This document shows positions 7,374 to 46,356 of a DNA stretch of 64,000 nt, piece after piece. Position 1 is the stretch's first letter. Each line of letters starts with the position of its first letter. The DNA is from an uncultured cyanobacterium (GTDB taxonomy: Bacteria; Cyanobacteriota; Cyanobacteriia; PCC-9006; JAAUQQ01), in assembly GCA_963718615.1 (NCBI GenBank), contig OY970368.1, positions 2,976,001-3,040,000 of the forward strand, read 5' to 3'. The translations under genes and the position numbers were made by a program. The notes under the pieces were generated by a model that saw only the letters and a program-made list of their open reading frames with translations, did not search any database and was not told the DNA's origin.

Positions 7374-7500
7374 GGAGTCTCCGTGAATCAGGCCTGAATC
7401 ATTCTCACCCAGACTTTTGGGCATCCCCTTGGGGTCGCTCAGGTTCTGTTGTGTATTTTTGTGCCCATTCACTGTCCGACATATTTGTCTGACCCCGATC

Positions 7501-8109
7501 ATGGAAAAGCTTACCGAGGCCCAGCAAGAGCTGTTTGATTGGCTCCTGCTCTATATCCGCGAAAATCAGCATCCGCCTTCGATTCGGCAAATGATGCGAG
7601 CGATGGATTTGCGATCGCCCGCCCCTGTCCAAAGCCGCCTCAAGCATTTGCAGAAAAAGGGCTATATCGACTGGAATGAGGGCCGTGCCCGCACGATTCG
7701 GGTGTTGACGGAGAAGGGAATTCCCCTGGAGGGGGCGATCGCTGCCGGTAGTCTGATCGATGTCTTTCCCGACAGCGTGGAGCGCTTGGATTTATCGGAT
7801 GTCTTCCAAAATCCGGACTGCTACGCTCTGCGGGTGCGCGGCGACAGCATGATCGAAGCCCACATTGATAGCGGCGATATTGTCATCATGCAGAAGGTCA
7901 AGGATCCGTCGCGGGTCAAGGATGGCACCATCGTAGCCGCTCGGGTAGAGAGCCAAACAACGCTTAAATATCTTCACTATCAGGGTAAGAAAGCGATTCT
8001 CAAACCGGCCAACAGTAATTACGACCCCATTGAAGTATCTACCGAAAATTTAGAGATTCAGGGGGTGCTGGTGGGCGTTTGGCGGGGGTATGGCGTCACA
8101 GACCTCTAA
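7501..8109 (+). CDS. lexA: LexA repressor
   Basis: MEKLTEAQQEL...PPSIRQM wHTH, Ala-Gly cleavage site (IAAG), catalytic Ser (GDSM) and Lys (TLK). True start is ATG 7501. Confidence 0.95.
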   Translation: MEKLTEAQQELFDWLLLYIRENQHPPSIRQMMRAMDLRSPAPVQSRLKHLQKKGYIDWNEGRARTIRVLTEKGIPLEGAIAAGSLIDVFPDSVERLDLSDVFQNPDCYALRVRGDSMIEAHIDSGDIVIMQKVKDPSRVKDGTIVAARVESQTTLKYLHYQGKKAILKPANSNYDPIEVSTENLEIQGVLVGVWRGYGVTDL

Positions 8110-13291: not shown

Positions 13292-14173
13292 TTACCGGCT
13301 TGTTTTGGTTTCCGCCTCTAGGGCCTGTTGGGCTGCTTGCAATTCTTGCCGTTGGGTTTCGCTGAGCTCTGGATAGTGCAATTTCAAGTTTTTTAAGGTA
13401 TTGCCAATGATATCGGCAACAGCCCAGCGGGTAAACCATTTGTGGTCCGCTGGAATCACATACCAGGGCGCATGATCGGTACTGGTGTGGCTAAGCATAT
13501 CTTCGTAAGCCGCCATGTAGTCATTCCAAAAGGCTCGTTCTCGCACATCTGCTGCGGAAAATTTCCAGTTTTTTTCGGGGCGCTGAATGCGATCGAGAAA
13601 ACGTTGCTTTTGTTCTTCTTTAGAAACATATAGAAAAAACTTTATGACGATTGTACCGTTGTCATAGAGATATTTTTCAAAGTGATTAATTTCTTCAAAC
13701 CGTTGTTGCCAAATCTTGGGATTTTTCTTGATGGGCTCTGGTAGCTGTTGGTGTTGTAGAATCTCCGGATGAACCCGAACCACAAGGACTTCTTCATAGT
13801 AGGAGCGATTGAAAATGCCAATCCGACCTCGCTCCGGAAGAGCCTTCATATTTCGCCACAAATAGTCATGATCTCGCTCTTCCTCCGACGGAGCCTTGAA
13901 GCTAAAGACCTGACAGCCCTGGGGATTAACGCCTGACATGACATGTTTGATCGTGCTATCTTTACCGGCTGCATCCATCGCCTGAAAGATCAATAGGAGT
14001 GAATAGGTATTCTGGGCATAGAGGACGTCTTGATATTGGCTAAGGGCTTCCACGCCTGCGGTCAGCTTATCTTTAGCTTCCTGTTTGTTGTGCAGATTGC
14101 CGGTGTAGGCGGGGTTGTGATCCTTGAGCGAAACGGAGGTTCCGGGCTTAATGCGAAAATCGCTAGATTTCAT
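13292..14173 (-). CDS. ppk2: polyphosphate kinase 2 family protein
   Basis: Motifs [27 protein letters not shown] and [11 protein letters not shown]. Confidence 0.92.
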
Positions 14174-14721
14174 AAGTTTGGGGACTGATTGCTAGACAGA
14201 GGGTTTTGCTGTGTTCCTAAAATATACCGTGATGGAACCATCCTTTTTTTACAATCGTTTTTTTGCAATCGTTTTTTACAGGCGGTTGATACTGGACAAA
14301 TGCTGAGAACCGAATCTTTTCAGCCATTTTGCTCAGACATTTTGCTCAACGAATTAATGCGTCCTTCTGGGATGCGTTTTTTCTTCGACCGATTATCTTG
14401 ATTTCTCTATTTAAACAATTTAAATTGATCGACGCAAAACCTTGCTTTTAGACCCATTACTTACTCTTGCGGACAAAAAACTCGTCTAGCATTTACAAAT
14501 ATCGCCATCATTTTGCCGAGTTTTTACGGATGAATCCTGGGTTTTTGTTTATGGTTATGAGTATCAAGCAGGAAGCGTGAGATTGGCGATCGCTTACCCT
14601 ATCGCTTCTACCCTATTGAGTCCAGGGGATCGTACCCATCAATCCTTGCGAAGGACATTCCATTGAGTCAGGGGGCAATATCTGCCTTCGGCCCTTCGTG
14701 CTAGATCCTCAGGAGTTTTTC

Positions 14722-15609
14722 ATGATGAATAGGAATACGGCTCAAGCTATGTTCGGTAAAGGCTTGCCTCTCGTCGTTATGACGGCAATAGTGTCGCTAC
14801 CCGCCCAGGCGGCTACCCTGGCCGGTGCCAGTAGTCAGTCCGAATTATTTAACTTTATGCTCAATGGGGTGACCACGTTGCCCCTTTCAACGGATACCGC
14901 AACAGATACCCATACGCTGGTCATTGGTGGAGAATCGTCCGTTGTTAGCGTGAGCGATGCAACTGCAACCTTTCAAGTCGATCCTCCTGTCGCTCAGGCT
15001 CAGTCAATCGGAATTTCCCAAGGCGATGGACCAACCTCGTATTTCGGTTCCGCTGATGGCACAGCAGAAGCCTTGGGGCTCTTTTGGGTGGAGGGTCTGT
15101 TTTCCTTCGATTTCACGTCGGATCTGGAACTGTTGACGAGCCTTGACGATCCGCATTATGAATCCATCTGGGCTACGGGCAGCACGCTGTTTTCACTCTA
15201 TGGATCCGAAAGTCCCGATAGCCAACCTGTCTTGATTGATTTCTTTTCCCTCGATGGTGAGATTTCCTCGACCAGTTTCGGCGATGCCTTAGCAGTAGGC
15301 TATAGCTCTCATATTTCTCTAGCACCAGAGGATTGTAATGCCATCGAGCCCCTGGCTTGCCTGCAGCAAAACGATGGTGGCAATACAGAATCGGCCTTAG
15401 CCCATCTTACAGGCTCCTACGAACGCAATTTTGATACGCCCCTTTGGATTACCCTGGTCAAATCCCAGTTTGTTGCAGCCCAGGTTCAGAAGACGCCAGA
15501 AAGTACCAGCTCTCTTAGCTTTCTGCTACTGCTCGCCTTCGGTGGGTTTCGCTTCGGACACAAATCATCGGCTCGTCCTGCGGATCCTGACATTAGCGTT
15601 GATGAGTAA
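14722..15609 (+). CDS. exported acidic Ser/Thr-rich protein with PEP-CTERM-like sorting signal
   Basis: AGGAG RBS at 14711; signal peptide ending PAQA-A; C-terminal TPES, hydrophobic helix (LSFLLLLAFGG) and basic tail (FRFGHK..R). Confidence 0.7.
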   Translation: MMNRNTAQAMFGKGLPLVVMTAIVSLPAQAATLAGASSQSELFNFMLNGVTTLPLSTDTATDTHTLVIGGESSVVSVSDATATFQVDPPVAQAQSIGISQGDGPTSYFGSADGTAEALGLFWVEGLFSFDFTSDLELLTSLDDPHYESIWATGSTLFSLYGSESPDSQPVLIDFFSLDGEISSTSFGDALAVGYSSHISLAPEDCNAIEPLACLQQNDGGNTESALAHLTGSYERNFDTPLWITLVKSQFVAAQVQKTPESTSSLSFLLLLAFGGFRFGHKSSARPADPDISVDE

Positions 15610-15728
15610 TTTGATGAGTAAAAGGATGGCTTAATCAGCAGGTTCGTGGCCTGTGGAGGCGTTGGACAGGCAAGAGGCTAGGCCAATCGTCCCGTCCTAT
15701 GCCTCTAACTACGCCTCTACAGTAGCGC

Positions 15729-16076
15729 CTATCTACCGGTCCATAGCTCAACGGTTAACGTTGTGGCACTACCCACTAATCCGGTAAAGTTGCCAGCCCC
15801 GTAATAGCCCGCAGAAACGGTTATTCCCTGGGATTGGGCAAAGGCATCGCCTCGGGCTCGGGCGCTGCTCGTGGCATATTGCGCGCCTAGGACTGCTCTA
15901 GTACGAGTATCCGCCCCCGCAAAGCTCACCGTTCCTAGGGCCAAGGAGGATGCATCGGCAAGACCATAACCATAACCCACTGCCACATTGCCATCGGCGG
16001 TTGCTTGAGGTCCAGCTGCACCCTGAAGTTTGGCCGACGCCGCTGGATTGCAGAACTTCAAATCTTGAATCTTCAT
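15729..16076 (-). CDS. double-glycine-type leader small protein (precursor 5)
   Basis: GGAGA RBS then MKIQDLKFCNPAASAKLQGA (20-aa leader) and an Ala/Gly/Ser/Thr-rich core. The leader is shared with four neighbours. Confidence 0.75.
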   Translation of the reverse strand: MKIQDLKFCNPAASAKLQGAAGPQATADGNVAVGYGYGLADASSLALGTVSFAGADTRTRAVLGAQYATSSARARGDAFAQSQGITVSAGYYGAGNFTGLVGSATTLTVELWTGR

Positions 16077-16238
16077 AGGTCTCCAGTCGCTGAAATATCT
16101 TAGCGATCGCAAGGATTATTCGACAGATTTAAGGCTGGGTTCAGCGGTGGGTGATCTCTGGGAGAACTTTTAAGGCTTGCCCCAGAGATAACATAATGAT
16201 GCGTCGAAAGACTAACCGTTGACGCCGAACCCCAAGAT

Positions 16239-16541
16239 TTATTTCGCTAAATTAATCACAGCAACAGAAGCACTGGCGGAGTAAGAACCACCAAGGAATG
16301 TAGCTAGCGCAACTGAATCACCCCGAGTAAAGGAAAAAGTAGGTAGACTGGTATTGTTAATGGCTTCCGCGCTGCCAGTCGCGGCTGCACTATTACTGCC
16401 TGCTAGTGGAGTGTTGATCAAGGTGGTAAAACTGCTGCTGCTGCCAACAGACAAAAGGCGATAGCCTGCGGCTCCCTTCATCTTGGCACCGAGATGAGTC
16501 TGAGAAAGCCTGTCGATGTAGTCTAAATCGGCAATCTTCAT
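16239..16541 (-). CDS. double-glycine-type leader small protein (precursor 4)
   Basis: Leader MKIADLDYID...KMKGA, Ser/Thr/Ala-rich core, GGAGA RBS. Confidence 0.78.
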   Translation of the reverse strand: MKIADLDYIDRLSQTHLGAKMKGAAGYRLLSVGSSSSFTTLINTPLAGSNSAAATGSAEAINNTSLPTFSFTRGDSVALATFLGGSYSASASVAVINLAK

Positions 16542-16635
16542 AGGTATAATTCTCCAGCACTAATTTGATTTTTCTCTTTTGGCTATTAAATTAGCCATTC
16601 TCCAAAAATAATACTCGCTTTAAGAGTGTAAAGAC

Positions 16636-16648
16636 TGCCAAATTGGCA
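16636..16648 (-). promoter_or_regulatory. TGCCA-N3-TGGCA palindrome, copy 1
   Basis: TGCCAAATTGGCA; minus-strand -10 TATTAT (16613-16608) follows after a 22-nt spacer. Confidence 0.65.
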
Positions 16649-16699
16649 ATTTAAAATATTATCTTATCAAGATAGAGCGATCGACAAAAAAATCAGATT

Positions 16700-17530
16700 T
16701 TAACGATGGGCGATGCGGTGATTTTCATTTTTTGCTGCGCCCATAGATCGACTAGAAGATTGGCGGACTAGATTCGGATCTGCAATAATTTCATCTTTTT
16801 CATAATGGACATAGTGACTCAGTTCTCGTTGTAGCCACTCTTGGAAGAGCTGCTCTAGGATACCCTGGCGAACGTCATCTGTTAGTTCCGCCAGTAGAAA
16901 AGATTCTGGTAAAAGCAAATGATAGCCATGTTCCGTTTGAATCGGATAGATTAGTTCGTTAGGATTTGCGCCAAAAACGGCAGCGGCTAGGGCTGCCGGT
17001 AAGGCATTGCGCTGGACTAAACCTTCATAGCCGCAGCGAGACCGCCGTTCTTCATTGACATCATAAATATGAGCTGCCTCATAGAAGCTAATCTCTTCTT
17101 CTTCGACTTGATAAAATAGCTCCTGGGCGAGTTGCTCATAGGGGACGATAATTTGATAGAGCAGCACTTTATCAAAGGTAATTCGATTTTCATAAAAGAA
17201 TTTTTCGACATCTTTTTCAAACAGCGTTTCCTTGAGCTTTTGGATAAGAAGGCGATCGCGAATTCCCTCTTCCCAGTCATTAGGACTAATTCCTTCGCTC
17301 TCCAGCCAGTCAAACGTGTCCGATGCTTTTTCTAGCTTCATTTGACGACGAAGCTGGTCGACTTCGGCCTGAATCTCCTTCTCATCAATGGCCAATTCAT
17401 GACTAGAGGCTTTCTCTTCCACAATCCGTTTTGACAAAATGTGATGGCAAACGGATTTAAATTGGATATTTCGCTTTAGGAAACTCACAATTTGGTCTTG
17501 GCTCACCAACTTTTCTAACGGATTTGTCAT
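16700..17530 (-). CDS. PpiC/rotamase-type peptidylprolyl isomerase-like chaperone
   Basis: SurA-like N-terminal helices plus AQELFYQVEEEEISFYEAAHIY, GYEG and PIQTEHGYHLL. This type is often linked to cyanobacterial peptide-export clusters. Confidence 0.85.
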   Translation of the reverse strand: MTNPLEKLVSQDQIVSFLKRNIQFKSVCHHILSKRIVEEKASSHELAIDEKEIQAEVDQLRRQMKLEKASDTFDWLESEGISPNDWEEGIRDRLLIQKLKETLFEKDVEKFFYENRITFDKVLLYQIIVPYEQLAQELFYQVEEEEISFYEAAHIYDVNEERRSRCGYEGLVQRNALPAALAAAVFGANPNELIYPIQTEHGYHLLLPESFLLAELTDDVRQGILEQLFQEWLQRELSHYVHYEKDEIIADPNLVRQSSSRSMGAAKNENHRIAHR

Positions 17531-17615
17531 AGGTAGGAAGGCTGCGTTTTAGGACGAGTCAAACGTATTCAACAAAATATTAAACTTAGGATATCTCTAA
17601 GTTCGACCTGCGTGT

Positions 17616-17660
17616 GGCCATTTTGGCAACTGCCCTGCCTAGATTTCTGCCAGAATGGCA
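17616..17660. promoter_or_regulatory. TGCCA-N3-TGGCA palindrome, copies 2 and 3, in a divergent promoter
   Basis: GGCCATTTTGGCA (17616-17628) has minus-strand -10 TATCCT at 17593-17588 after 22 nt; TGCCAGAATGGCA lies at 17648-17660. Confidence 0.65.
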
Positions 17661-17743
17661 ACCGGGCTCGGTGCATTTCTGCTTTGATGGAGCCGATGAT
17701 TCTTGCTAAAGCAGGATTACCCTCAATATCTCGGGGTTTGGTC

Positions 17744-20014
17744 ATGACTGCAGGACAGCATTCTGAGACGCGTTCTGAGCCAGAGGTGAAGACTTGCTTG
17801 AAAGCGGCGATCGAGCAGCATCGCGCAGGACAGCTTATTCAGGCGGAGAAGCTCTATCAAAGGGTTCTCCAACATCCGTCCTGCGATCGCCAACAGCGGG
17901 CAGAAGCTTATAATAATCTGGGAATTACCCTCCAGCAGCAAAACAAATGGCAAGAGGCTGCCGGGGCTTATCGCAGGGCGATGGAGGAAATGCCCACCTT
18001 GGTTGAGGCTTACTTCAATTTAGGGACTGTGCTGCAGGCGCAGGAGCGATCTTCAGCAGCTATCCTGGCCTATCAGGAGGCGGTGCAGCTTCAGCCAGAT
18101 TATATTGAAGTGTATTACAACTTAGGTCGGCTTTATCATCAACAGGGATTGCTGTTAGAGGCTGAGCAGACCTATCGACAGGGACTAAACTATCGTCCTG
18201 ATGACGTCGAAGTTCAGAAGGCATTGGGTCATCTTTGTTATGAACAGCATCGCTTGGAAGAGGCACAAAATGCCTATGAGAAAGTGATTCAGATTGATCC
18301 TCAAGATGCTAAGGCTCACTATAGTCTAGGGGTTACTTTAAAAGCTCTGGGAAATTCATCAGCCGCAATTCAAGCCTATGTACAAGCCTTGCGCTGCAAT
18401 CCAGATTATTTTGAAGCCCATAATAATCTAGGGACGCTTCTCCAGGAAGCGGGGCGGTTTGATCTCGCAATTCAGGCCTTTCAGCAGGCGCTTAAGTGTC
18501 AGCCCAACTACGCCAGAGGTTATGCTAATTTGGGGGCTATCCTCAAAAGCCAAAATCGCCTAACGGAAGCGATGAAAGCCTATGGCCAAGCGCTTGTGCT
18601 ACAGCCGAGTTTGTTCCAGGCTCGATTGGGCTTGTGCATCAGTCAACTGCCAATTATCTATGAAAGTGCAGCAGAGGTTGAAGAGCGGCGTGGACAATAT
18701 CATCAACAGTTACAGGCGCTTTTTGACTATTACCAAAAAGCGCTACCTCAGGAACGGGCTGAGGCGGCGCGCGATATTGGCCTAGTCCAGCCCTTTTATC
18801 TCACTTATCAAGGACAAAATGATCGAGAACTCCAGGCTCTATACGGTCAGCTCATGACTCAGCTAATGGCCTGCCGTTTTCCTCAATGGAGTCAACCGTT
18901 GGCAAAACGTAAGGTTCAATCCCATGAGAAGATTCGGGTTGGCATCGTTTCTGGTTTCTTTCATAATCATTCCAATTGGAAAATTCCGATTAAGGGGTGG
19001 GTACAACAGCTAGATCGCGATCGCTTTGAGCTGTGGGGATACTATACCCGTGCAAGACAAGATGAAGAGACAGCGATCGCAGCCCAGTCCTTTGATTCCT
19101 TTATTCAGGGGCCTTTGGCACTAGAAGAATGGGCGAAGTTAATTCAGGCAGATCAGCTTGATGTCTTAATTTTTCCTGAATTTGGCATGGATATGACAAC
19201 CTTGCAGTTGGGATGTTTACGACTTTCTCCCACGCAAGTGACGTCCTGGGGACATCCAGAAACGAGTGGTTTGCCGACGATTGACTATTGCCTCAGTAGT
19301 GACTTGATGGAACCACCCCAGGGGCAAGAATATTACACAGAAAATCTTGTCCGGCTGCCAAATCTGTCCATTTATTATGAACCTTTAGCGCTTTCCATAG
19401 ACAGGATTTCTAAAGCAGATATTGGTCTTGAAGAACAACAGACTCTCTATTGGTGTTGTCAATCACTTTACAAATATCTACCCCAGCATGATGATATATT
19501 TCCACGTATTGCAAAGCAAGTCGATCATGCTCGCTTTGTGTTTATCGCTCATCATAGCGATCCGGTAAATGAAGTTTTTCGAAAGCGATTACATCTTGCT
19601 TTTCAAGCGGAAGGTCTTGATCATGAAACCTATTGCATATTTTTACCTGAGATGAAGGTTAATCGCTTTGCGGGCGTTGCTGCGATCGCTGATGTTTTTT
19701 TGGATAGCTTAGGCTGGTCAGGGTGCAATTCAAGTTTTGAGTCTTTGGCCCACCAGACGCCAATTGTGACTTGTCCTGGAGAACTGATGCGTAGTCGTCA
19801 TACCTTGGCAATATTGAAAATGATGGAGCTTGAGGAGGCGATCGCCTATGACAAGTCAGAATATATCAGGATCGCGATCAGACTTGGGCTAGATCCGGTG
19901 TATCGGATGTCCATCGCCCAAAAAATTGCTATGAATAGGCATCGACTTTATTGGGATCTTGAAGCGATTCAGGCTCTAGAAGCCTTTTTGTTAGAATCAG
20001 TCGAACAAGTATAG
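17744..20014 (+). CDS. TPR-repeat GT41 (OGT/SPINDLY/HMW1C-type) protein glycosyltransferase
   Basis: About 8 TPRs, then KIRVGIVSGFFHNHS, LDVLIFPEFGMD, QVTSWGHPETSG, CQSLYKY and DVFLDSLGWSGCNS. ATG 17744 is preferred because the track start overlaps the palindromes. Confidence 0.88.
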   Translation: MTAGQHSETRSEPEVKTCLKAAIEQHRAGQLIQAEKLYQRVLQHPSCDRQQRAEAYNNLGITLQQQNKWQEAAGAYRRAMEEMPTLVEAYFNLGTVLQAQERSSAAILAYQEAVQLQPDYIEVYYNLGRLYHQQGLLLEAEQTYRQGLNYRPDDVEVQKALGHLCYEQHRLEEAQNAYEKVIQIDPQDAKAHYSLGVTLKALGNSSAAIQAYVQALRCNPDYFEAHNNLGTLLQEAGRFDLAIQAFQQALKCQPNYARGYANLGAILKSQNRLTEAMKAYGQALVLQPSLFQARLGLCISQLPIIYESAAEVEERRGQYHQQLQALFDYYQKALPQERAEAARDIGLVQPFYLTYQGQNDRELQALYGQLMTQLMACRFPQWSQPLAKRKVQSHEKIRVGIVSGFFHNHSNWKIPIKGWVQQLDRDRFELWGYYTRARQDEETAIAAQSFDSFIQGPLALEEWAKLIQADQLDVLIFPEFGMDMTTLQLGCLRLSPTQVTSWGHPETSGLPTIDYCLSSDLMEPPQGQEYYTENLVRLPNLSIYYEPLALSIDRISKADIGLEEQQTLYWCCQSLYKYLPQHDDIFPRIAKQVDHARFVFIAHHSDPVNEVFRKRLHLAFQAEGLDHETYCIFLPEMKVNRFAGVAAIADVFLDSLGWSGCNSSFESLAHQTPIVTCPGELMRSRHTLAILKMMELEEAIAYDKSEYIRIAIRLGLDPVYRMSIAQKIAMNRHRLYWDLEAIQALEAFLLESVEQV

Positions 20015-20157
20015 AGTCAATTTTGCCAAGCGTCGAATCGTCATAAGATTTCAATACGCTGACCGCCCTAGTCTTATCCAAAAAGATATGTTTGTAATTT
20101 TATTTTTTCTTTAGAAAAATAATCAAATTAGATATTGTTTTGATCGCGAAAAGAAGA

Positions 20158-20198
20158 TGCCAAAATGGCAACATAGCGTGATAGAAGATTCGTATATT
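20158..20198 (+). promoter_or_regulatory. TGCCA-N3-TGGCA palindrome, copy 4, with -10 box
   Basis: TGCCAAAATGGCA (20158-20170), a 22-nt spacer, then TATATT (20193-20198). Confidence 0.65.
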
Positions 20199-20258
20199 GG
20201 TTGCAGTGAATCGAACAGATTCCTGGCTTAAGTTCCTACATCAACGGGAGAAACTCCA

Positions 20259-20549
20259 ATGATTATTTCTGATCTTTCCTACCTGGATAACGTTGCTGAA
20301 GAGCAAGTTGTGGGTGGTTTTTCGTTTAGTGCTAACAAGAATGTCGACATCAGCATCGGTGTTAACGAAACCATCAACATCAACAAGAATGTCAACTCTG
20401 CTGTGAACATCAGCGGCAACCTCGCAACGGCTGAGTCTGGCGCAACTGCTTTCGGCAACAACACCATTGCTGAAGCCTTTGGTTTCACCTACACGGATGC
20501 TGGTAGCTCTGCTGCTAACGCCTTCTCCGTTTCCGCTACCAACGACTAA
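20259..20549 (+). CDS. double-glycine leader small protein (precursor 1)
   Basis: GGAGA RBS; leader MIISDLSYLDNVAEEQVVGG (20 aa) and a 76-aa Asn/Ser/Thr/Ala-rich core. Confidence 0.88.
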   Translation: MIISDLSYLDNVAEEQVVGGFSFSANKNVDISIGVNETININKNVNSAVNISGNLATAESGATAFGNNTIAEAFGFTYTDAGSSAANAFSVSATND

Positions 20550-20559
20550 TTAATTAGTC

Positions 20560-20585
20560 ATTCCGAGGTCTTCGGTCCTCGGAAT
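20560..20585 (+). terminator. cUUCGg stem-loop after precursor 1 (stabiliser or partial terminator)
   Basis: ATTCCGAGGTC-TTCG-GTCCTCGGAAT, one mismatch in the stem. Confidence 0.65.
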
Positions 20586-20664
20586 TGTTTGGTCATTATG
20601 GCAGGTTTGAAAAACAGATTGCCATTCTTTTATTCCCTTAATTTCCACTTGAAGGAGAACTCCA

Positions 20665-20955
20665 ATGATTATTTCTGATCTTTCCTACCTGGATAACGTT
20701 GCTGAAGAGCAAGTTGTGGGTGGTTTTTCGTTTAGTGCTAACAAGAATGTCGACATCAGCATCGGCGTCAACGAAACCATCAACATCGACAAAAATGTTA
20801 CCTCCGTTGTAAGCATCAGCGGCAATCTCGCAACAGCTGAGTCTGGCGCAACTGCTTTCGGCAACAACACTATTGCTGAAGCCTTTGGCTTCACCTACAC
20901 GGATGCTGGTAGCTCTGCTGCTAACGCCTTCTCCGTTTCCGCTACCAACGACTAA
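20665..20955 (+). CDS. double-glycine leader small protein (precursor 2, near-identical duplicate of precursor 1)
   Basis: 92 of 96 aa identical to 20259-20549; GGAGA RBS. Confidence 0.88.
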   Translation: MIISDLSYLDNVAEEQVVGGFSFSANKNVDISIGVNETINIDKNVTSVVSISGNLATAESGATAFGNNTIAEAFGFTYTDAGSSAANAFSVSATND

Positions 20956-20966
20956 TTAATTAGTCA

Positions 20967-20990
20967 ATCCGAGGCCTTCGGGCCTCGGAT
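20967..20990 (+). terminator. cUUCGg stem-loop after precursor 2
   Basis: ATCCGAGGCC-TTCG-GGCCTCGGAT, a perfect 10-bp stem. Confidence 0.7.
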
Positions 20991-21141
20991 ATTTGGGTTG
21001 ACGGGAAGACATTAAATGGCAATTATTGCTGTTGTTTTACCGATTAAGAATTTTGAGTCGAGATTGCTCTACTTCGAAGACCATAACTCTAAACGGCTAT
21101 TCTTCGTGTCTGTTTAACTGAGCTTTTGAAGAGAGACTCTC

Positions 21142-21438
21142 ATGATTATTGCTGATCTAAACTATTTTGAAAATGCTGATGACCGACCGACCTATGGTGG
21201 GTTTTATGTTGGGGAATCTAAAAAAATTGGAATTGAAGTTAACATAGCAGAAAATGTCTTAATTGGTAAAAATCTCAAGGCTGTTCTTTTGCTCCAGGGT
21301 AATTTGTCTACGGCGGAAGCAGGCGCAACGGCTTTTGGTAAGAACACTCTGGCTGAAGCCTTTGGGTTTACCTATACCGACCATAACGGTTCTTCCTCCA
21401 ACTCCTTCTCGATTTCTGCAACCTCCTCTGGAGCTTAA
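21142..21438 (+). CDS. double-glycine leader small protein (precursor 3, divergent paralogue)
   Basis: Leader MIIADLNYFENADDRPTYGG; its C-terminal half (GNLSTAEAGATAFGKNTLAEAFGFTYTD) matches precursors 1 and 2. Confidence 0.85.
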   Translation: MIIADLNYFENADDRPTYGGFYVGESKKIGIEVNIAENVLIGKNLKAVLLLQGNLSTAEAGATAFGKNTLAEAFGFTYTDHNGSSSNSFSISATSSGA

Positions 21439-21443
21439 GAACG

Positions 21444-24400
21444 ATGAATCAGCTTAGGCATAATGCAGCTTTTTCCATGGATACAGTTGTGCTGAATCAT
21501 CAAGTTGCTGTAGTGACTGGAGGAGGAAGGGGTCTGGGTCAAGCCTATGCCTTAGCCTTAGCCACATCGGGTGCAAAAGTTGCGGTGATTGCTCGTTCTT
21601 TCCAACAGCTTGAAGACACTGTTAACGCTATTCAAACTTTAGGTGGGCAGGCGATCGCTATTCCTGCTGATGTCACGGAGCCGAAAACCTGCGAGCAGGC
21701 GATCGCTCAAATTCAGGATCAGCTAGGGCCGATTGACCTGCTGATTAACAATGCCGGTGTGTTTACGCCCATTGGTCCACTGTGGCAGACTTCGCCCCAG
21801 GATTGGTGGCAAACCCTTGAAGTCAATCTTAAAGGCTCCTTTCTATATAGCCATGCCATTCTATCGTCAATGGTGGCTCGTCAACAGGGTCGCATTATTA
21901 ATGTGGTGAGTGAGGCAGGTCTCTTAGGAATTCCTTACTGTTCATCCTATGGGGTTAGCAAAACGGCGCTAATTCGCTTGAGTGAAACCTTGGCTTTAGA
22001 GGCTGCGACCCACAACGTCTACATTTTTGCACTGGATCCTGGAGCCGTTCGAACGACGATGACCGATATTCGGCATTCCCCTGAAGCGCAACAGTGGATT
22101 CCCTGGTGTAATCAAGCCTTTGGGCAGAATCAAGACGTTTCCCTGCAACGGGTTGCTGATGTGATACTACGTCTAGCTTCGGGTCAGTACGACGCTTTGT
22201 CAGGGCGATATCTTCATGCAACAGATGACCTAGCGGCTTTGCTTCAGAAAAGTTCAGAAATTCAAAACCAGCAAGCCTATGTTCTTCGACTAGGTCGATT
22301 AGACCTACCTCTTGTGTCAACAACTCCTATTGATGAGCTTTTGCAACAGGCGATCGCAGTAGAGCCGCAGGATATTGACCAAGCCCAACAACTCTATCAT
22401 CGTATACTAACGGCACAGCCCCATCATCAGGATGTTCTTTATCGCCTCGGTCATTTAGCCCAGCGCCAGGGTCAGCCGAAAGAGGCTATGCAATGGTGGC
22501 AAAGGCTTTTGAATGTCAACTCCCATTCGCTTAAAGCCTGGTTTAGCTTAGGCAATCTCTATCAGGCTGAAGGAGATTTACAGGCTGCTGAAATGGCCTA
22601 CCGTCAAGCCCTTGTGCTTCAGCCACAGCAGGGAGTTCTCTACAATAATTTAGGTTATGTGCTTCATCAACAGACTCGACTTGATGAAGCTATTGTCTGT
22701 TACCAAACGGCTCTAAAACTTCAACCGACCAGTGTCGAAACCGAGGCTAATCTCGGTCACACATTACAGGCACAGGGAGAGCTCTCTTCAGAACAACAGG
22801 CCTATTATGGAGCGCTCAATTATCGGTTGGGTGTTCATCGGCATCAGAGGGGAGATAAAGCAACTGCGGAAGTTTATTATCGACGGGCGATCGCTCTAGA
22901 TCCTACCGTAATTGATTTTTATCTCTCTCTGGGTCAACTATTGCAAGAACAGTGCAAGTTGGATGAAGCGATCCTATCCTTAGAAAAGGCTCTGGTCCTG
23001 CTTGGCGCTCAGTCTCAGGCCCAAACTCAAGTCCAAGCTCCAACCCAACCTCAACCTCAGAAACCTCAGATTCAATCTGAACAACGCCAGACTCAAGAGA
23101 TTAAAACCTATTTTAAACTCGGTCAGCTCTACCAATATCAACGTCAACTGAAGAATGCCGTTGTGATGTATCGGCAGGGGCTGATTCTGGCGAATCCTCA
23201 CTATGCTCAAGCGATCGCAGCCCAGCCTGCTCATGCTAGCGAATTGGTGACCGACGTTCCCACGACACCTTCTATTTCACTCGGAGAAGTGAGGGTGGGA
23301 GACTATCTATTTCCTGCAATTCCTGCGGTTCAAGACTTGGAAACCTCTCGACCTTTTTGGTCTGTTGTAATTCCGGTTTATCGTCGTACGGATTATGTAT
23401 TGGAGGCGATCGCCAGTGTGCTCAGGCAATGGCCTGGCCCAGCAGCTATGGAAATTTTGGTAATGGATAATGCCAGCGATCCACCTCTGTTCGAATGGGT
23501 AAATCAGCTCGGTCAAGGAATTATTCGTTACTATCGTAATTCTCAAAATGTGGGTGTAGTCAACAACTCTAACCTAGGCATTGCTCTGAGTCGAGGGCAA
23601 TGGATTCACGTTCTGCATGATGATGATTGTGTTTTGCCCGGATTCTATCAGAATCTTCAAGCGAGTTTAGAGTCTTGTCCGGACTCTGTTGGAGTTGCCT
23701 GCACTGGCTTTGAATATTTTGATGAGATGGGCAATGCTTTAGAGACTGGCGAAGTCAGTTCAATCTACGGTTCCAATCGGGGGATCATGCAAGATTGGCT
23801 AGCTCGGATTGGAGTCTGTGGTTTGGTGACGATTCCTGCCATGGTGGTGCGTCGCGCAACCCATGAACATTTGGGTGGGTACTATCCGGCGTTGCCAGAA
23901 ATTGCGGACTGGGAAATCTTTAAGCGTTATGCGTCCTTTTATGATTGGTGGTACGAGCCAGGAATTTTAGCCCGTTATCGTGAACATACGCGAAAAATGA
24001 CGCCGGAGAATTGGCGCACGGGAACCATCGCAGAATCAATTCGCTTGGCGATCGAAGTGTCTGATAGCTATTTTCCAGAAGCGCAGCGTCAGGCGATTTC
24101 GCTCAGTGCACGTCGTCATAATTTTAACTATTGCCTGAGTCGGTTATCTATTCCGTTAGAAATGGGCAATCAGGCCGGTGCCCTGCGAATTTTGCGAGAG
24201 GTTCTCAAGATTGATCAGTCGACGGCAGCGATCGCCAAGCTCTTGACTTGGTTGAAGGAAAAGCAAGCAGAGCCGATACGCGAACTCATTTTCTCTCAAC
24301 TATTCTCCCTAAATAGCGAGACTGAAAAATCGAGCAGAGTAGAATTATCCCAAAATCCTTTGCTTTCCTGTGCCGCTAATCAATCAACTTTTTCATCTAG

Positions 24401-31164: not shown

Positions 31165-34100
31165 ATGGATAAGCGCAGGTGCCAACTGTTAGGGCTCTAT
31201 CTCAATGTGATCAATATTTTTCTCGGTGTGCAGCCAGCCTGGAGTCAAGCTGTGCCAGATACCACGCTGGGTTCGGAACTCTCCGGGGTCAATGGTTCCG
31301 GGGTTAATGGTTTTGCAGCACAGCCGGAGCGGGAACTGGTCACGGGCGGGGCTGTGCGGGGAAAGGTTCTGTTTCATAGTTTTTCTGAATTGAATGTGGG
31401 GGAGGGGCGATCGCTCTATTTCACCCACCCCAGCGGCATCAGCCAAATCTTCAGCCGCGTTACCGGCAGCAGTCCGTCCAAGATCAACGGCACCCTCGGC
31501 GTTCTCGGCAATGCTGATCTGTATTTGCTCAACCCCAATGGGGTGTTATTTGGGCCGAATGCGCGGTTGGATTTGAGCGGGAGTTTTACCGCAACGACGG
31601 CGACGAGTGTGAAGATCGGAGGACTGGAGTTTAGTGCGGTTTCTCCCTCGGCCCCGCCATTCCCGCCATTGTTGAATCTGTCGGTGCAGCCAGGGTTGCA
31701 GTGGGGGGCTGTGGCGAGTGATTCACGCCTTCAAAATCAAGGCTCCTTGGCCGTAGAAGCGGGGCGATCGCTCTCCTTCATGGCGGGGCAAATCGATCAG
31801 ACGGGAACAATCCTGGCACCGGGCGGAACGGTGACGTTGCAGGGTGAAACCTTTAGCTTAACGGGGAGCATTGATACCCGAGATAGCCTAGGAAAAGCGG
31901 GAGCGTTGCGACTGATTTCGCCTCTGGATTTGCAGATTAAACCGACGGGACCGCTGACGAATGGGGCGATCGCCCAAGCCCTTCTGAGCAATAGTGTGGT
32001 GATCGAAGCCGCAGGCGATTTGACCTTAGCCGGTCCCCTATCAAGCACCGTTTCCTCACCTCTCACCTTACAGGCGGGCAATGACCTGTTCCTAACACCT
32101 GGTAATCGAATACTCGCAGGGGATGTAACGCTGATCAGTGGCCGAGATATCAGTATCACCGATACACTCAAGCTGAATGGCGCTCAACCCCACCAATTGA
32201 CGATTCAGGCAGGGGGCGATGTGCGCTTGCAGAATGCCGCATTGCCCAATGATACGGTTGGGGATCAGCGTTCAAATCCGCCCTCTTTAACGACGATCCA
32301 AGCAAATAATTTGATGCTGGATAACACTGAATTGTCCGGCTTTATCTATGGCCTTGGAGACGGAGCCAATCTCGTGATTCAGGTGCAGGATACCGTCGTG
32401 CTTCAGGGATCAATTATTCTTACTTTTGTGTCTGCGGGGAGTTTGGGAAATGCGGGAGGTATCACGATTCAAGCCCGCCGGCTTCAGCTGGATGGCTCCT
32501 CGGGTCAGCGCTCTTCTATCGCATCAACAACAGATCTTTTGACCCCTGGTAATGCGGGAAATATTACCCTTGATGCTTCGGACTCGATTGAGTTGGTGGG
32601 GAGTCTTCCGGGTCCCTTTAATGCAGTGGCTTTTCGGGCTGCTGAGCTGATTGACTTGGCACAGGCAGGCACGACGATTACCTCTTCGGCCTTTGGGGCT
32701 GGTCAGTCGGGCAACATCACGATCGAGACCGATCGCTTGCTCATGCGGGATGGTGTTGCCCTTGGGATTGTGCCGGGAATTTTTGCCACCGCCCGAGGCC
32801 AAGAGGGCAATGTGACGATCGCCGCCCGAGAGACCCAGCTACAAGGGCTGGCGGTGATTGGATCCTTAACTTTAGGCGCAACCGATGCGGGGGATGTGAC
32901 GATCCGGGGCGATCGCCTCAGCCTCAACGATGGGGCGGTGATGAGTGTCAATAGTATTGGCGTAAATACCCTGGCGGGAAGTGGCGATGCGGGGGAACTG
33001 CGAGTCGATGTCAGGGAGCTGAATGTTCTAAAGGGTTCATTTTTGAGTGCGGGAACCGATACCCCAGGAGCAGGGGGGAATTTAATCGTGAATGCAGATA
33101 CCGTAACTGTGGCAGGGACATCAGCGGATGGGATTTTCCCCTCGGCACTGCGGACGGATGTGGGGACGGGCTTTGGCCTGTTGGATCCGGCGATCGCCAC
33201 CGGCAAAGGCGGCCAACTCATCCTCAATGCCAACCAACTGCAAGTCTTCGATGGGGCCCAAATCTTGGCCAGCACCAACAGCAAGGGCGATGCGGGTAAC
33301 GTTGAGATTACTGCCAAAACCGTCGAAGTGAGGGGCACGGGTCCGAGCGGTATACCCAGTTTGCTGGCGGCAGAATCCAATGGCATGGGGGCTGCTGGAA
33401 CGTTGAAGGTGACGGCGGATCAGTTGACGATTCGCGATCGCGCCCAGGCTAGCACCCAATCCCGCCAGGGGGATGGCGGCAATATCAACCTTTCCCTCAC
33501 CGACGTTCTCTATCTTCGCCGCCAGGGACGGATCACCGCCACCGCTGGCATTGATGGAGCCGGGGGAGACGGCGGCAACATTAACATTAAAGCTGGATTT
33601 ATCGTAGCGCCGCCCAATGAAGATACCGATATCAGTGCCAATGCCTTTGAGGGGAGTGGTGGAAACGTCACCATTCAGACAAACACCCTCTTGGGGGCAG
33701 AACCGCGCGATCGCGCCACCCCTCGCAGTGACATCACCGCCAGCTCAGAACTGGGGGTCAGGGGTCAGGTTACTGTTGATGTACTGGCACCCCAGCCAGA
33801 TTCCGGCTTGGTGGAATTACCCATTGCCTTGCTGAATGAATCTCAGCAGGTGGCCAACGAATGCAAAAGTACGGCTCAATCTCGTTTCGTTTTGACAGGG
33901 CGAGGTGGCATTCCGGCGGATCCTCGTCAGCAGTTGCAGGGACAAATGCTCCTTCAGGATTGGCGAGGGCTAGAGAACGGGGCTAGCGCTGGCACTGGGG
34001 CTGGACGAACGGCGGTTCGTCCCTACGGTGGTTCTATGATCTTGCACCGACCGATTGAAGCCCAGGCCCTGAGACGCGATCGCCAAGGCCGCATCCAACT

Positions 34101-34236
34101 CGTCAGCCAACGGCCCCAAATCCCAGCAACGGCAAGGCTCTCCTGCTCAATGATCGAGCAAGCAAACCAGCCAAAATCAGATCAGCCAGAATTAGAGGAT
34201 CAGATCCAGGGCCTGAGTTACCCAAAGACTGAATGA
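31165..34236 (+). CDS. filamentous haemagglutinin N-terminal domain (TpsA-like) exoprotein 1
   Basis: Signal peptide; LFHSFSEL, SRVTG and LLNPNGVLFG; GNAGNITI beta-helix repeats; C-terminal C...FVLTGRGGIP..P motif. Confidence 0.9.
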   Translation: MDKRRCQLLGLYLNVINIFLGVQPAWSQAVPDTTLGSELSGVNGSGVNGFAAQPERELVTGGAVRGKVLFHSFSELNVGEGRSLYFTHPSGISQIFSRVTGSSPSKINGTLGVLGNADLYLLNPNGVLFGPNARLDLSGSFTATTATSVKIGGLEFSAVSPSAPPFPPLLNLSVQPGLQWGAVASDSRLQNQGSLAVEAGRSLSFMAGQIDQTGTILAPGGTVTLQGETFSLTGSIDTRDSLGKAGALRLISPLDLQIKPTGPLTNGAIAQALLSNSVVIEAAGDLTLAGPLSSTVSSPLTLQAGNDLFLTPGNRILAGDVTLISGRDISITDTLKLNGAQPHQLTIQAGGDVRLQNAALPNDTVGDQRSNPPSLTTIQANNLMLDNTELSGFIYGLGDGANLVIQVQDTVVLQGSIILTFVSAGSLGNAGGITIQARRLQLDGSSGQRSSIASTTDLLTPGNAGNITLDASDSIELVGSLPGPFNAVAFRAAELIDLAQAGTTITSSAFGAGQSGNITIETDRLLMRDGVALGIVPGIFATARGQEGNVTIAARETQLQGLAVIGSLTLGATDAGDVTIRGDRLSLNDGAVMSVNSIGVNTLAGSGDAGELRVDVRELNVLKGSFLSAGTDTPGAGGNLIVNADTVTVAGTSADGIFPSALRTDVGTGFGLLDPAIATGKGGQLILNANQLQVFDGAQILASTNSKGDAGNVEITAKTVEVRGTGPSGIPSLLAAESNGMGAAGTLKVTADQLTIRDRAQASTQSRQGDGGNINLSLTDVLYLRRQGRITATAGIDGAGGDGGNINIKAGFIVAPPNEDTDISANAFEGSGGNVTIQTNTLLGAEPRDRATPRSDITASSELGVRGQVTVDVLAPQPDSGLVELPIALLNESQQVANECKSTAQSRFVLTGRGGIPADPRQQLQGQMLLQDWRGLENGASAGTGAGRTAVRPYGGSMILHRPIEAQALRRDRQGRIQLVSQRPQIPATARLSCSMIEQANQPKSDQPELEDQIQGLSYPKTE

Positions 34237-34280
34237 TCTGCTGACGCTTCTCTAGTGGAGGTCGGTGACAGGAAAAAGCG

Positions 34281-34371
34281 TCCGGACAGGCAAATCCAGT
34301 GAGTGCAAAATATACTTAAATTAACTCAGTATAATTCCATAAATATGAGTTGTTTAACCCCGAACCCATAA
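34281..34371 (+). promoter_or_regulatory. conserved upstream element of FHA gene 2 (contains TATAAT)
   Basis: Second copy of 31056-31146. Confidence 0.65.
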
Positions 34372-34440
34372 ACAGCTGACAAAAGTTTCTGGGGTTTATC
34401 ATTTTTTGGATTATTCAAAGTCCCATACCGGTGATGGCCC

Positions 34441-37400
34441 ATGAAAAAGAATCTGTTTTATGCCCTTTTCCTATGGCCCTTGAGTATCAGTCCCCAAATC
34501 GTTTGTGCTCAAATCATCCCCAATAATCCCCTTGAGACTGAGGCTTCACAACTCATCCCCCTGGGCAATGGTGAAACACTGATTGGTGGGGGTGCACTGC
34601 GGGGAGACAATTTGTTTCATAGTTTTGAAGAATTTAATATTGGGACGGGAGAACTCGTCTTATTTGGAGATCCGGGGGGAATCAAACGGATTTTTAGCAA
34701 GGTAATTGGGGGGAGTCCTTCGCAGATCGATGGGGAATTTGGCGTGGTGGATTTGGCGACGGGGGCGCTGACGGGGGCGGATTTATTTTTGCTCAATCCG
34801 GGTGGGATAGTGTTAGGGCCGAGAGCGCGATCGCTGGTCTTGGGTTCATTGTTTTTAACCAGTGCCGAGCGGGTCCAGTTTGAAAATTACAACTTTACTG
34901 CGGCTTCCCCTGATTTACCGCCGCCATTGCTCAGTATTGGTGTGCCAGTGGGGTTGCAGATGGGCGCAAGGCCGGGGCCAATCGTCCAGGAATCAGCGGA
35001 GTTTGGGGCAGGGTTGTCCGTTGCACTGGGGCGATCGCTTACCCTCCTCGGCGGCGATATTACCCTAGCCGGTAACGCCTTCGGAAATCTGGCCGGAGGA
35101 CGCCTAGAACTAGGAGCCGTTGGCCCGGAGAGTGTCGTGGCTTTGCTGCCGGTCGATCGAGGCTATGGGCTGGACTATACCCAGGTCAAGGGATTTCAAG
35201 ATATTCAGCTCTTGCAAACTGTCATTCTCGATCCGGGAGCTGTCAATGGCCTGGACGCTGCTTTCCAAGGCCGAACGATTACATTGGAAGAAGCGGAATT
35301 TGCCACGGCTGCCATTGGTGATCAGCCGGGGGGAGCAATTCAGATTCGAGCCACGGAAGCGGTCAAGCTCATCGGTTCTGCCATTCCCAGTTTGTTGATA
35401 ACCGATGTTCTGCCGGAGGCAACGGGACGGGGCGGTGATATCACGATCGAAGCTCCGATGATTGCCTTAGAAACCGGCGGGCAAATTGGGACTTTGACCG
35501 AAGGGCAGGGAGATGCAGGAGATATTTGGCTGAAAAGCGCAGACTCCCTAACCCTGAGTGGGACGACAACCGCTAGTCTGGACTCTCCTGATGAGTTTTC
35601 TAGCTTGATTTTCTCCGCTGTAGCATCGGGGGCTACAGGCGGCGGCGGTCACGTTTGGATTAAGACGCCTCGGTTGGCCTTGGAGAACGGCAGTCAGATC
35701 GGTTCATCGACGCTCAGCACCAGCAATGCAGGCAACATTACAGTCAGTGCTGAGCAAGTTGAGGTCATCGGCACGACGACTAACACCCTTACCAGCAGGA
35801 TTACGTCAATCGTACTGCCCGGTGCGGAAGGCCATGGCGGATCGGTAGACCTTGTCGCCGATCGCGTCCGATTGCTTGCCGGAGGCCAGATTGCGACGGT
35901 GACCCTTGGGCTGGGCAAGGCGGGAGATATCCGGGTTGAGGCCCAGCAGTTTGAAGCTGAAGATCAGCTGAATCCCCCCAATATCTCACCGGCTGGACTC
36001 ATCTCCACGGTTTCCCCAGGAGCCCTGGGGAATGGGGGCAATGTGCAACTGTGGGCGGAGGATATTCGCTTGACGAGGGGAGCACAGGTTGCTTCCAGTA
36101 CCCTTAGCCAGGGAAATACGGGACGGTTAGAGGTCAATGCCACCCGGATTGATTTACAAGGCACCGCTACGGGCGGCCCTTTCCCAACGGGATTCTTTGT
36201 AACGGTGGAGCCCGGTGCCTCGGGTAATGGGGATGCCTTGCGGATCACCACGGATTCTCTGCGTTTGACCGAGGGAGCTGCCATCCAAACCAACACCTTT
36301 GGCCCAGGACAGGCTGCGACGCTGGAGATCCAAGCCAGGGACCGCATTGTGCTCCAGGGGCGCAATCCTCAAAATGGCTTATCGAGTGCCATTTCCAGTA
36401 GTACGGACACAGAAATCTTGGCGGCTTTCGGATTTCCCCCCACCGCTGGGGGCCAGGGGGGATCGCTGCGGATTCAAACGCCGCTGTTGCGGCTGGAACA
36501 GGGAGCGGTCATCGCCGCTAAAAGTCGTAGTGACGGGGCCGGGGGGAACGTGGTTTTAGACCTCGATCGCCTAGAACTGTTGAGTGGATCTCAAATTCAG
36601 GCTTCGGCGTTCAATCAGGGGGATAGCGGCACGATTGAGATTACAGCGGCTGAGGCGATCGCGATCGCCGGTCAAGACCCGATCTATGCCGAGCAGTTGG
36701 CCCAGTTTGGCAACTCCCTCTCTAACTCACCGGAAAGTGAAGAGAGTGCGATCGCCGTCCGTTCCTTTGGGTCTGGCGCGGCCCGACAAATTAGCTTACA
36801 AACGCCCCTGTTAAAAGTACAAGACCAAGGACTGATCAGCGTCAGCAGCAAAGGGACCGGACCGGCGGGCAACTTAGCGATTGGGGCCAACCAAGTCCTT
36901 TTGGATGGGGGGTCACTGCAAGCCAATACAGAGATCGGAGAACAGGGCGGGATTGCCATTACGGGGGCTGATTGGCTGTTGCTGCGCCGGAGTGGTGCCA
37001 TCACAACCAATGCTGGAGCCGATAGTACTGGCGGCAATATCAACATTGCTGCTGGCTTCATCGTCGCCCCTGCCCACGAAAACAGCGATATCACCGCCAA
37101 TGCGATGCGAGGGCAAGGGGGCAAGATCAGCATTCAAACCCAGGGTCTGTTTGGGATTGAGTTTCGTGATCGCCCCACCCCCCAAAGCGACATCACCGCC
37201 AGCTCTGATACGGGACTGAAGGGCACCGTCAATATCGCGCTGTTGGCCATCGACCCTAACCCCGGCTTAGTTGAACTACCGATTGCGCTTCTGAACTCCA
37301 GCGATGCAATCACAAACGCCTGTCGGCAAACGTTCCCCTCTAAATTTATCGTTAGCGGTCGTAATGGACTCCCTAGCGACCCTCGCCAAACCCTAACCTC

Positions 37401-40247: not shown

Positions 40248-40328
40248 GTTCTAGGGAATAAACCTTAGGTAATAAATCGTAGGCAATAAATCCTAAGCAA
40301 TAAATCCTAAGCAATAAATCCTAGAACC
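40247..40328. repeat. five 14-bp tandem units (AATAAATCCTAAGC consensus) bracketed by 9-bp inverted repeats
   Basis: Units span 40257-40326; GGTTCTAGG (40247-40255) pairs with CCTAGAACC (40320-40328). Confidence 0.75.
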
Positions 40329-46329: not shown

Positions 46330-46356
46330 GGTCTTATGCTAGCTTAGTCGCCTACA

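Follow-up and report, generated by a model that had tools for sequence, protein, structure and literature searches.

A TGCCA-N3-TGGCA palindrome at putative class-II promoters of cyanobacterial double-glycine peptide export clusters

Introduction

Class-II promoters of the cyanobacterial regulator NtcA have the arrangement GTA-N8-TAC, 22 nt, TAnnnT, in which a two-fold symmetric site of 14 bp lies near -41 and replaces the -35 box, and they serve nitrogen genes. The site of CRP/SYCRP1, TGTGA-N6-TCACA, spans 16 bp. Here we describe a different palindrome, the 13-bp TGCCA-N3-TGGCA, in 64,000 nucleotides of DNA from an uncultured cyanobacterium (GenBank contig OY970368.1, positions 2,976,001 to 3,040,000; this whole stretch is called the window below). 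An earlier note on the window, made from the sequence alone, had proposed that four copies of the palindrome are read by a single activator, not encoded there, that co-regulates both divergent arms of one gene cluster.

As judged from gene content, the cluster appears to belong to a known type, the bacteriocin-like "group II" clusters of cyanobacteria (Wang et al. 2011, PMC3140520). In the available parts of that paper such clusters comprise a long ATP-binding cassette (ABC) exporter with cyclic-nucleotide-binding (cNMP) and C39 peptidase domains, HlyD, a SurA-like isomerase, HetP-like proteins and double-glycine precursors; a KIxDLxYLE-x10-GG motif is noted in the HetP-like proteins, and the word "promoter" was not found in those parts. 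The full set of exporter, HlyD, isomerase and precursors is present in loci related to the window. The window itself is partial: it has the isomerase and precursors, and its 64 kb lack the ABC, HlyD and HetP-like genes. Queries with the exporter, HlyD and HetP-like proteins gave no match within it, and the cluster therefore appears to be split.

A second relative is the hetC-hetP pair of Anabaena/Nostoc PCC 7120, in which hetP adjoins hetC, the gene of a cNMP-C39 ABC exporter, and green fluorescent protein fusions of both products co-localise (PMC10986499, in the portion available). The HetP-like proteins considered below share with HetP a HetP-family domain with the same conserved helix and a place beside such an exporter. 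Heterocyst-type HetP proteins (141-156 amino acids) carry IPYRTYNRLLKEN together with KIKDL.YL..GG. According to the accessible text of a 2026 study (PMC13342950), HetP promotes promoter occupancy and transcription, and chromatin immunoprecipitation peaks of sigma-HetZ vanish or are greatly diminished in a hetP mutant, which resembles the activator role proposed here. Unlike that role, HetP is described in the same text as a nonspecific DNA binder and a helper of sigma-HetZ at TCCGGA promoters, and many organisms with the loci studied here form no heterocysts.

Results and Discussion

Palindromes and promoter geometry in the window

A rescan of the window returned all four palindromes at the coordinates and with the sequences given in the earlier note. 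Copy 1 (TGCCAAATTGGCA, 16636-16648, exact) faces the divergent small-protein genes on the minus strand, copy 2 (GGCCATTTTGGCA as read on the plus strand, 17616-17628, one mismatch) faces the peptidyl-prolyl isomerase (PPIase) gene on the minus strand, copy 3 (TGCCAGAATGGCA, 17648-17660, exact) faces the TPR-GT41 gene, and copy 4 (TGCCAAAATGGCA, 20158-20170, exact) is the canonical site ahead of precursor genes 1-3. All four are intergenic and lie inside one gene cluster, with copies 2 and 3 standing back to back 32 bp apart between the PPIase gene on one side and the TPR-GT41 gene on the other. Start codons lie 95, 86, 84 and 89 nt from the proximal edge of copies 1 to 4, very close to the roughly 85-95 bp that had been claimed.

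The three exact copies compare with an expectation of 0.10 (sd 0.33) in 64 kb, and at least three were reached in none of 100 dinucleotide shuffles; with one mismatch tolerated there are 7 palindromes against 3.07 expected, a number reached in 2 of 100 shuffles. Half-site spacings of 0-11 other than 3 are absent from the 64-kb window. The other one-mismatch palindromes, at 15981, 22489 and 50084, lie within open reading frames (ORFs) without the -10 geometry and are probably chance matches. A scoring matrix built from 102 sites, all from other genomes, gave its best value in the window at 20158 (34.6), followed by 17648 (16.4) and 17616 (11.5), whereas 16636 stayed below 8 because its flanks are unlike the consensus. 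Matrix and two-mismatch scans of the whole window gave no extra site with promoter geometry except a poor two-mismatch match at 51027. The window has a G+C content of 52% and contains GCGATCGC 111 times, and is cyanobacterial in character.

Downstream of all four copies the gap to the -10 position is exactly 22 nt. As the earlier note had it, three copies are followed there by TAnnnT, namely TATTAT at 16608-16613 on the minus strand (copy 1, predicted start near 16601), TATCCT at 17588-17593 on the minus strand (copy 2, predicted start near 17581) and TATATT at 20193-20198 on the plus strand (copy 4, predicted start near 20205). At copy 3 the corresponding hexamer, at 17683-17688 on the plus strand, is only the weak -10-like TTTGAT (predicted start near 17695), and this promoter is predicted to be the weakest of the four because that hexamer does not fit TAnnnT. 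The hexamers at the -35 position of the window copies are AGTCTT, CACACG, AACCGG and AACATA, none of which resembles TTGACA; a consensus scan at copy 1 also gives TTTACA-16-TATTTT, three bases further on. Two traits of class-II promoters are thus seen at these copies, a fixed position near -41 (with the starts predicted, and the 22-nt gap leading to TAnnnT in three of the four) and a weak or absent -35 hexamer, the latter also found in the consensus of 102 sites described next.

Conservation of the palindrome in related loci

At E up to 0.01 the small precursor family comprises 22 database clusters. With an alignment of 23 of its members we pulled 77 related loci, 1.25 Mb in total, from GTDB species genomes of Microcoleus, Tychonema, Planktothrix, Leptolyngbyaceae, Pleurocapsales, Chroococcidiopsidaceae, Nostocales and others. 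Lack of conservation upstream of orthologues had been named in advance as a possible refutation; we found 132 exact copies of TGCCA-N3-TGGCA in 45 of the 77 loci, as against 0-6 copies for each other spacer within 0-9 and 0-4 for the reversed half-site order. TAnnnT stands at exactly 22 nt in 106 of the 131 sites with full flanks, and in one direction only, with 18, 15 and 13 sites at the next best offsets; the spacing seen in the window is thus kept in other genomes. The oriented consensus of 102 distinct sites reads aaTC-TGCCAAAaTGGCA-ACa, about 19 unconserved bases, TAtatT, with no conserved TTGACA-like hexamer. On this sequence evidence the palindrome is a real and widely conserved promoter control site.

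The genes within 300 bp downstream of the sites include those of the export system: precursors (61), RTX proteins (16), TPR-GT41 (7), HlyD (6) and PPIase (6). The divergent layout in which one site faces GT41 and another the precursor also occurs in L038, L040 and L065, and PPIase orthologues are preceded by sites in L027, L039, L059 and L069. The expectation that the motif would mark the missing exporter was borne out only for its HlyD component, which has sites ahead of it in 6 loci, and failed for the ABC gene, which never has one. In some loci three or four palindrome-plus--10 units stand in tandem, 80-135 bp apart, ahead of a single precursor gene (L045, L053 and L063: 9742-9925; L058: 9609-9924; L044: 4192-4508); they may be stacked promoters or may give rise to short transcripts.

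When the ORFs of all loci were clustered, the recurrent set comprised an ABC exporter of about 1,030 amino acids with cNMP-binding and C39 peptidase domains (48 loci), HlyD (50), the isomerase (61), RTX proteins (51), either TPR-GT41 (29) or GNAT-TPR proteins (18), as well as more small double-glycine proteins and a HetP-family protein of about 150 amino acids (29 loci).

A different promoter type where the palindrome is missing

No exact site is present in 32 loci, mostly of Nostocales, and the precursor promoters there have the form TTGAC(T)-N17-TATAGT/TATATT with a different inverted repeat flanking the -35 box. Both promoter types were counted ahead of those precursor genes for which 200 nt or more of upstream sequence was available. 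The palindrome-N22-TAnnnT arrangement precedes 36 of 54 precursor genes in motif loci and none of 48 in non-motif loci, while TTGAC-N16-18-TAnnnT precedes 5 of 54 and 24 of 48, respectively, and no precursor gene has both. Three observations together support the view that the palindrome is the site of an activator at a class-II promoter, centred near -41 from the predicted start: its symmetry combined with a distance to the -10 box that is exact to the base, the lack of a -35 box beside it, and the presence of a consensus -35 box precisely in the loci that do without it.

The exchange of the palindrome for a consensus -35 box and another inverted repeat, seen in most Nostocales loci, is a clear case of natural promoter rewiring of one cluster. 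The inverted repeat around the TTGAC box looks like a repressor operator, and the same cluster thus appears to be oppositely wired in the two groups. In several of these loci TTGACT-N17-TATAGT is bracketed by approximately TTCCTCAAAAAAG ... TTTTTTGAGGAA (L015: 9880-9940; also L004, L008-L010, L013, L017, L020-L022 and L031). A conserved ORF of 65-88 amino acids (MHPIELMRKYGWSY.KLAEEFGVSE...) lies between HlyD and the precursors only in palindrome-free loci (L011, L012, L014, L016, L033, L060 and L071; for example L014: 7627-7845). It has no Pfam or NCBIfam match and could be a regulator of the palindrome-free subfamily.

Comparison with described promoters

The earlier note had held that the motif matches neither NtcA nor CRP, and this agrees with our comparison against both consensus sequences. 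As in NtcA class-II promoters, a two-fold symmetric site lies 22 nt before TAnnnT, near -41, in place of the -35 box; unlike them, the half-sites are TGCCA and TGGCA, the spacer is 3 bp, the 13-bp site has an odd centre where that of NtcA spans 14 bp, and the genes form a secretion cluster rather than a nitrogen regulon. GTA-N8-TAC occurs neither in the four window copies nor in the 102-site consensus. The CRP/SYCRP1 consensus is likewise absent, with different half-sites, a spacer of 3 bp and no other spacing enriched, and the half-site centres, 8 bp apart, are too close for a CRP-family dimer.

Sigma-54 promoters (TGGCAC-N5-TTGCW, with GG at -24 and GC at -12) share the pentamer TGGCA with the palindrome, while the -10 box here is of the sigma-70 type. 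In the 102-site consensus a GC element 10-11 bp downstream is not conserved, and positions 19-24 after TGGCA are unconserved; sigma-54 is not known from cyanobacteria. The sigma-HetZ (DIF1) promoter is given as TCCGGA-N16-17-TGNA in the accessible text of PMC13342950, and neither TCCGGA nor TGNA is found in the 102-site consensus.

Neither TGCCAAAATGGCA, nor its sequence variants, nor written forms of the motif were found in a microbial context in the searchable literature, where the matches were primers in unrelated papers. Relative to that literature the cis-element is new, whereas the type of gene cluster is already known.

A HetP-like protein as candidate reader

The HetP-family proteins of the loci match NCBIfam NF037966 in 3 of 3 cases tested (E 1e-24 to 1e-35; 103.1, 120.8 and 84.7 bits, cut-off 45). 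An alignment search gave 2,914 HetP-like relatives, and among the best 120 of these 2,914 the names given by the sources are those of the HetP family. In 25 of the 27 loci with both genes, the HetP-like gene stands 12-434 nt downstream of HlyD and in the same orientation. Among the recurrent ORFs of the motif loci, with single-copy ORFs and unlinked genes outside the scan, it encodes the only protein linked to DNA binding.

In the 50 HlyD loci an exact site occurs in 24 of the 27 that have a HetP-like gene and in 2 of the 23 without one (one site each), and the three HetP-like loci that lack an exact site have 3, 2 and 6 one-mismatch sites. The Fisher p of 9.5e-9 for this table overstates the association because the HetP-like trait needs only 3 changes on the HlyD tree, and there are only 3 independent pairs. 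That tree has two deep clades, one with the HetP-like gene and the other almost without it. In both clade-A loci that have the gene (L019 and L076), sites lie within about 150 bp of it.

More telling than the table as a whole are these nearby sites and a substitution in the HetP-like proteins. The Tyr before the R-T-(Y/S)-N-R-L helix is replaced by Q, R, R or H in L019, L028, L029 and L057, which belong to three lineages, and these are exactly the HetP-like loci that have no exact site in promoter geometry. Where the Tyr is kept, an exact site in this geometry is present in 24 of 25 loci, the exception being a contig of 2,976 bp. The precursor promoter of L028 retains the geometry around a degenerate AGCCAAAATGACC.

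Structure prediction confidently gave the HetP domain as three helices, both for the domain alone (predicted local-distance score, pLDDT, 90.1) and within the whole protein. A two-copy model of residues 12-72 scored 0.54, compared with 0.02 for the best of 3 controls; of proteins with solved structures, 20 of 30 pairs and 1 of 23 single chains came up to 0.54. Model runs showed at least 68% contact agreement and a partner pLDDT of at least 74. In the model the two chains meet symmetrically through helices 1 and 2, with the invariant Y-S-W-A-C as part of the interface, and the basic helix 3 stays exposed together with its invariant R, T, R and K. The modelling thus supports pairing of the HetP domain as a dimer, and such a compact dimer would suit the palindrome because the half-sites are only 8 bp apart.

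About 40 residues past the domain, 28 of the 29 HetP-like proteins carry I-x-D-L-x-Y-L-E ... G-G (the exception is L019). The D, L, E and both G of this segment are invariant or nearly so, and the pattern is that of the N-terminal leader of the precursors. We regard the HetP-like protein next to HlyD as the leading candidate for the reader of the palindrome, and put its chances at about even.

Proposed mechanism and alternative explanations

Taken together, we think it likely that a dimeric activator acts at the 13-bp palindrome upon a regulon of cargo and maturation genes and that the HetP-like protein is its most likely reader. The activator would bind TGCCA-N3-TGGCA, a site that ends 22 nt before a sigma-70-type TAnnnT, has its centre some 41 bp ahead of the predicted start and occupies the position of the -35 box. 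RNA polymerase would probably be recruited by the bound activator as at class-II promoters, because no usable -35 box is present. The regulon would consist of the cargo and maturation genes of a peptidase-containing ABC export system, that is, double-glycine-leader peptides, RTX-repeat proteins, the PpiC-type isomerase, TPR-GT41 and, in some genomes, HlyD. The testable parts of the proposal that one activator serves both divergent arms held; activation rather than repression, the start sites and the identity of the binding protein are what we infer. The statement that the activator is not encoded in the window agrees with our findings as well: no recurrent regulator gene is present there, and tblastn with 29 HetP domains turned up no HetP gene missed by annotation, either in the window or among the 48 loci without one.

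Several findings weigh against this interpretation or against its choice of reader. As to the promoter elements, 25 of the 131 sites elsewhere lack TAnnnT at 22 nt; in the window, the flanks of copy 1 are atypical, and copy 3 offers no better -10 box than TTTGAT. No HetP domain accompanies the four window sites within the 64 kb, and about 20 motif loci have no HetP-like gene in the available sequence, many of these being short or exporter-less too. The table of HetP-like genes and sites is largely one deep split between two subfamilies, and with 3 independent pairs a sign test cannot reach significance. A fold search with the HetP-like model gave nothing below E 0.001 (best 2.7 for the whole protein and 7.7 for the domain), and a sequence search of solved structures with the HetP-like protein had a best E of 0.61. 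Finally, the accessible text of PMC13342950 calls HetP a "nonspecific DNA-binding protein", which does not favour a specific reader, and the available parts of Wang et al. 2011 (PMC3140520) take HetP-like proteins as exported precursors, not regulators.

Several of these points would be accommodated if the activator site were real and its reader were an unlinked regulator encoded elsewhere, the HetP-like protein being mere cargo or an accessory of one exporter subfamily. This possibility deserves attention, although we do not think it probable. It would account for the motif loci without a HetP-like gene, the window included; it also draws on the shrinkage of the co-occurrence to about three independent events, on the cargo-type leader-like motif of the HetP-like proteins (compare the available parts of PMC3140520) and on the failure of the fold search to find a DNA-binding relative of their domain. 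It is opposed by the absence of another recurrent regulator from the loci (again with single-copy ORFs and unlinked genes outside the scan), by the substitutions of Tyr that follow loss of the exact motif in three separate lineages and by the sites close to the HetP-like gene in both clade-A loci; moreover, HetP reportedly binds DNA and is required for sigma-HetZ to occupy its promoters (PMC13342950, accessible text).

That the palindrome is instead a repressor operator that blocks polymerase at the -35 region is improbable in our judgment. Such an operator might well overlap the -35 position as the palindrome does, secreted-peptide clusters are often silent, and palindrome-free loci show a repressor-operator-like inverted repeat around their TTGAC box; but a steric block would not need the base-exact -10 spacing of 106 of 131 sites, promoters without a -35 hexamer would be weak when nothing is bound, and strong -35 boxes occur only where the palindrome is missing. 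We give still less credence to the block being an upstream element of an alternative sigma factor that works without a separate activator. The fixed distance to the -10 box would fit, and the phylum offers a precedent in HetZ, with a palindromic TCCGGA at -35 (PMC13342950, accessible text), but the centre of the palindrome, which spans about -47 to -35, lies farther upstream than region 4 of a sigma factor would reach with a spacer of 16-18 nt, the two-fold symmetry suggests a dimer, and the -10 box has the usual form for primary-type sigma factors, TAnnnT, rather than TGnA. That the palindrome works at the RNA level, as a small hairpin or a terminator, or that it is a repeat of chance or mobile origin, seems to us scarcely credible. 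A consensus scan does list one copy, 20170-20158 on the minus strand, as terminator-like (a 5-pair stem with a 3-base loop), and two to four tandem copies 80-190 bp apart occur in several loci. The palindrome nevertheless lies upstream of the expected start, what follows the stem in the 102-site consensus is A-C-A without a T-run, and conservation is of the sequence rather than of pairing and is limited to the 13-mer and the -10 box while the flanks differ; the ten outer bases are invariant by definition, and a compensating change in one-mismatch sites was neither sought nor seen. Positions 14000-22000 have no relevant Rfam family at E up to 1, the single match (16346-16387) being weak and unrelated, and chance would supply only 0.10 exact copies in the window.

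Implications

With the palindrome read as an activator site, a cis-element and regulon are defined for a widespread and uncharacterised class of cyanobacterial export clusters, and a scan for the palindrome, 22 nt and TAnnnT can locate scattered parts of the system in any genome, including the missing exporter of the window. As a kind of element it is ordinary, a class-II activator site; the likely reader and the link to HetP and HetC give it wider interest, and the palindrome is a concrete DNA probe for the molecular role of HetP and for the recognition target of the HetC exporter.

A bolder extension, which we offer as speculation and hold to be rather doubtful, is that HetP-family proteins are sequence-specific dimeric activators of TGCCA-N3-TGGCA, that their leader-like segment is a ligand or substrate of C39 domains and that HetC-HetP arose from this module as a derived copy. 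In that case the state of the exporter would be linked to cargo transcription through binding or cleavage of the HetP-like protein by the neighbouring C39 peptidase domain; that the protein might be a ligand or substrate of the exporter is suggested because its internal segment matches the precursor leader pattern. If this were true, HetP would gain a specific DNA target and HetC a candidate substrate.

Genes of the cluster and its surroundings

The three tandem precursor genes (20259-21438, plus strand) encode proteins of 96, 96 and 98 amino acids with the leader MIISDLSYL..VVGG, which starts with MIISDLSYL and in which residues 17-20 form the double-glycine motif VVGG. Behind precursor genes 1 (20560-20585) and 2 (20967-20990) stand G+C-rich stem-loops with 9-10 pairs, and because of this position read-through into the later precursor genes may be attenuated. 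The TPR-GT41 protein (17744-20014, plus strand) combines TPR with a glycosyltransferase family 41 domain (PF13844, E 1e-18) and matches the protein N-glucosyltransferase model NF049992 weakly and only in part (E 1.4e-9, well short of the cut-off). The precursor cores, whose genes adjoin it, are rich in N-x-S/T triplets (NET, NIS, NNT), and the peptides may be N-glycosylated in the cytoplasm.

On the opposite arm, the PpiC-type PPIase with a SurA-like N-terminal part (16700-17530, minus strand) has orthologues in 61 of 78 sources, that is, the 77 loci and the window. The two divergent small proteins (15729-16541, minus strand; 100 and 127 amino acids) start with M-K-I-x-D-L and are weakly like the c8 and c7 families of related loci. 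A further gene at 14698-15609 encodes a protein that clusters with the RTX-repeat family of 51 sources (50 loci and the window); Pfam gave no match for it at E up to 0.001, and the upstream palindrome that 16 of its relatives have is missing here. The only DNA-binding protein that Pfam recognises near the cluster is LexA (7417-8106), which we set aside as the reader, since the known cyanobacterial LexA boxes do not resemble TGCCA-N3-TGGCA.

Beyond the precursor genes the window continues with an SDR-TPR-GT2-GT2 fusion and with sugar-nucleotide genes that reach to about 30.8 kb. These are followed at 31165-41264 by two large TPS-domain proteins of the two-partner-secretion type, a TPR-CHAT protein and a DUF928 protein, with no palindrome ahead of their genes. 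An IS200/IS605 pair is located at 45142-46769, with a TnpB-like OrfB on the minus strand and a Y1 transposase on the plus strand whose ORF calls overlap. Among the related loci, L005, L025, L032, L043, L045, L063, L064 and L077 (for example L032: 646-849) encode proteins of 63-73 amino acids without a family match, which start with K-V-(I/V)-x-K-R-(I/V)-V-S-P-D and have a long serine-rich tail.

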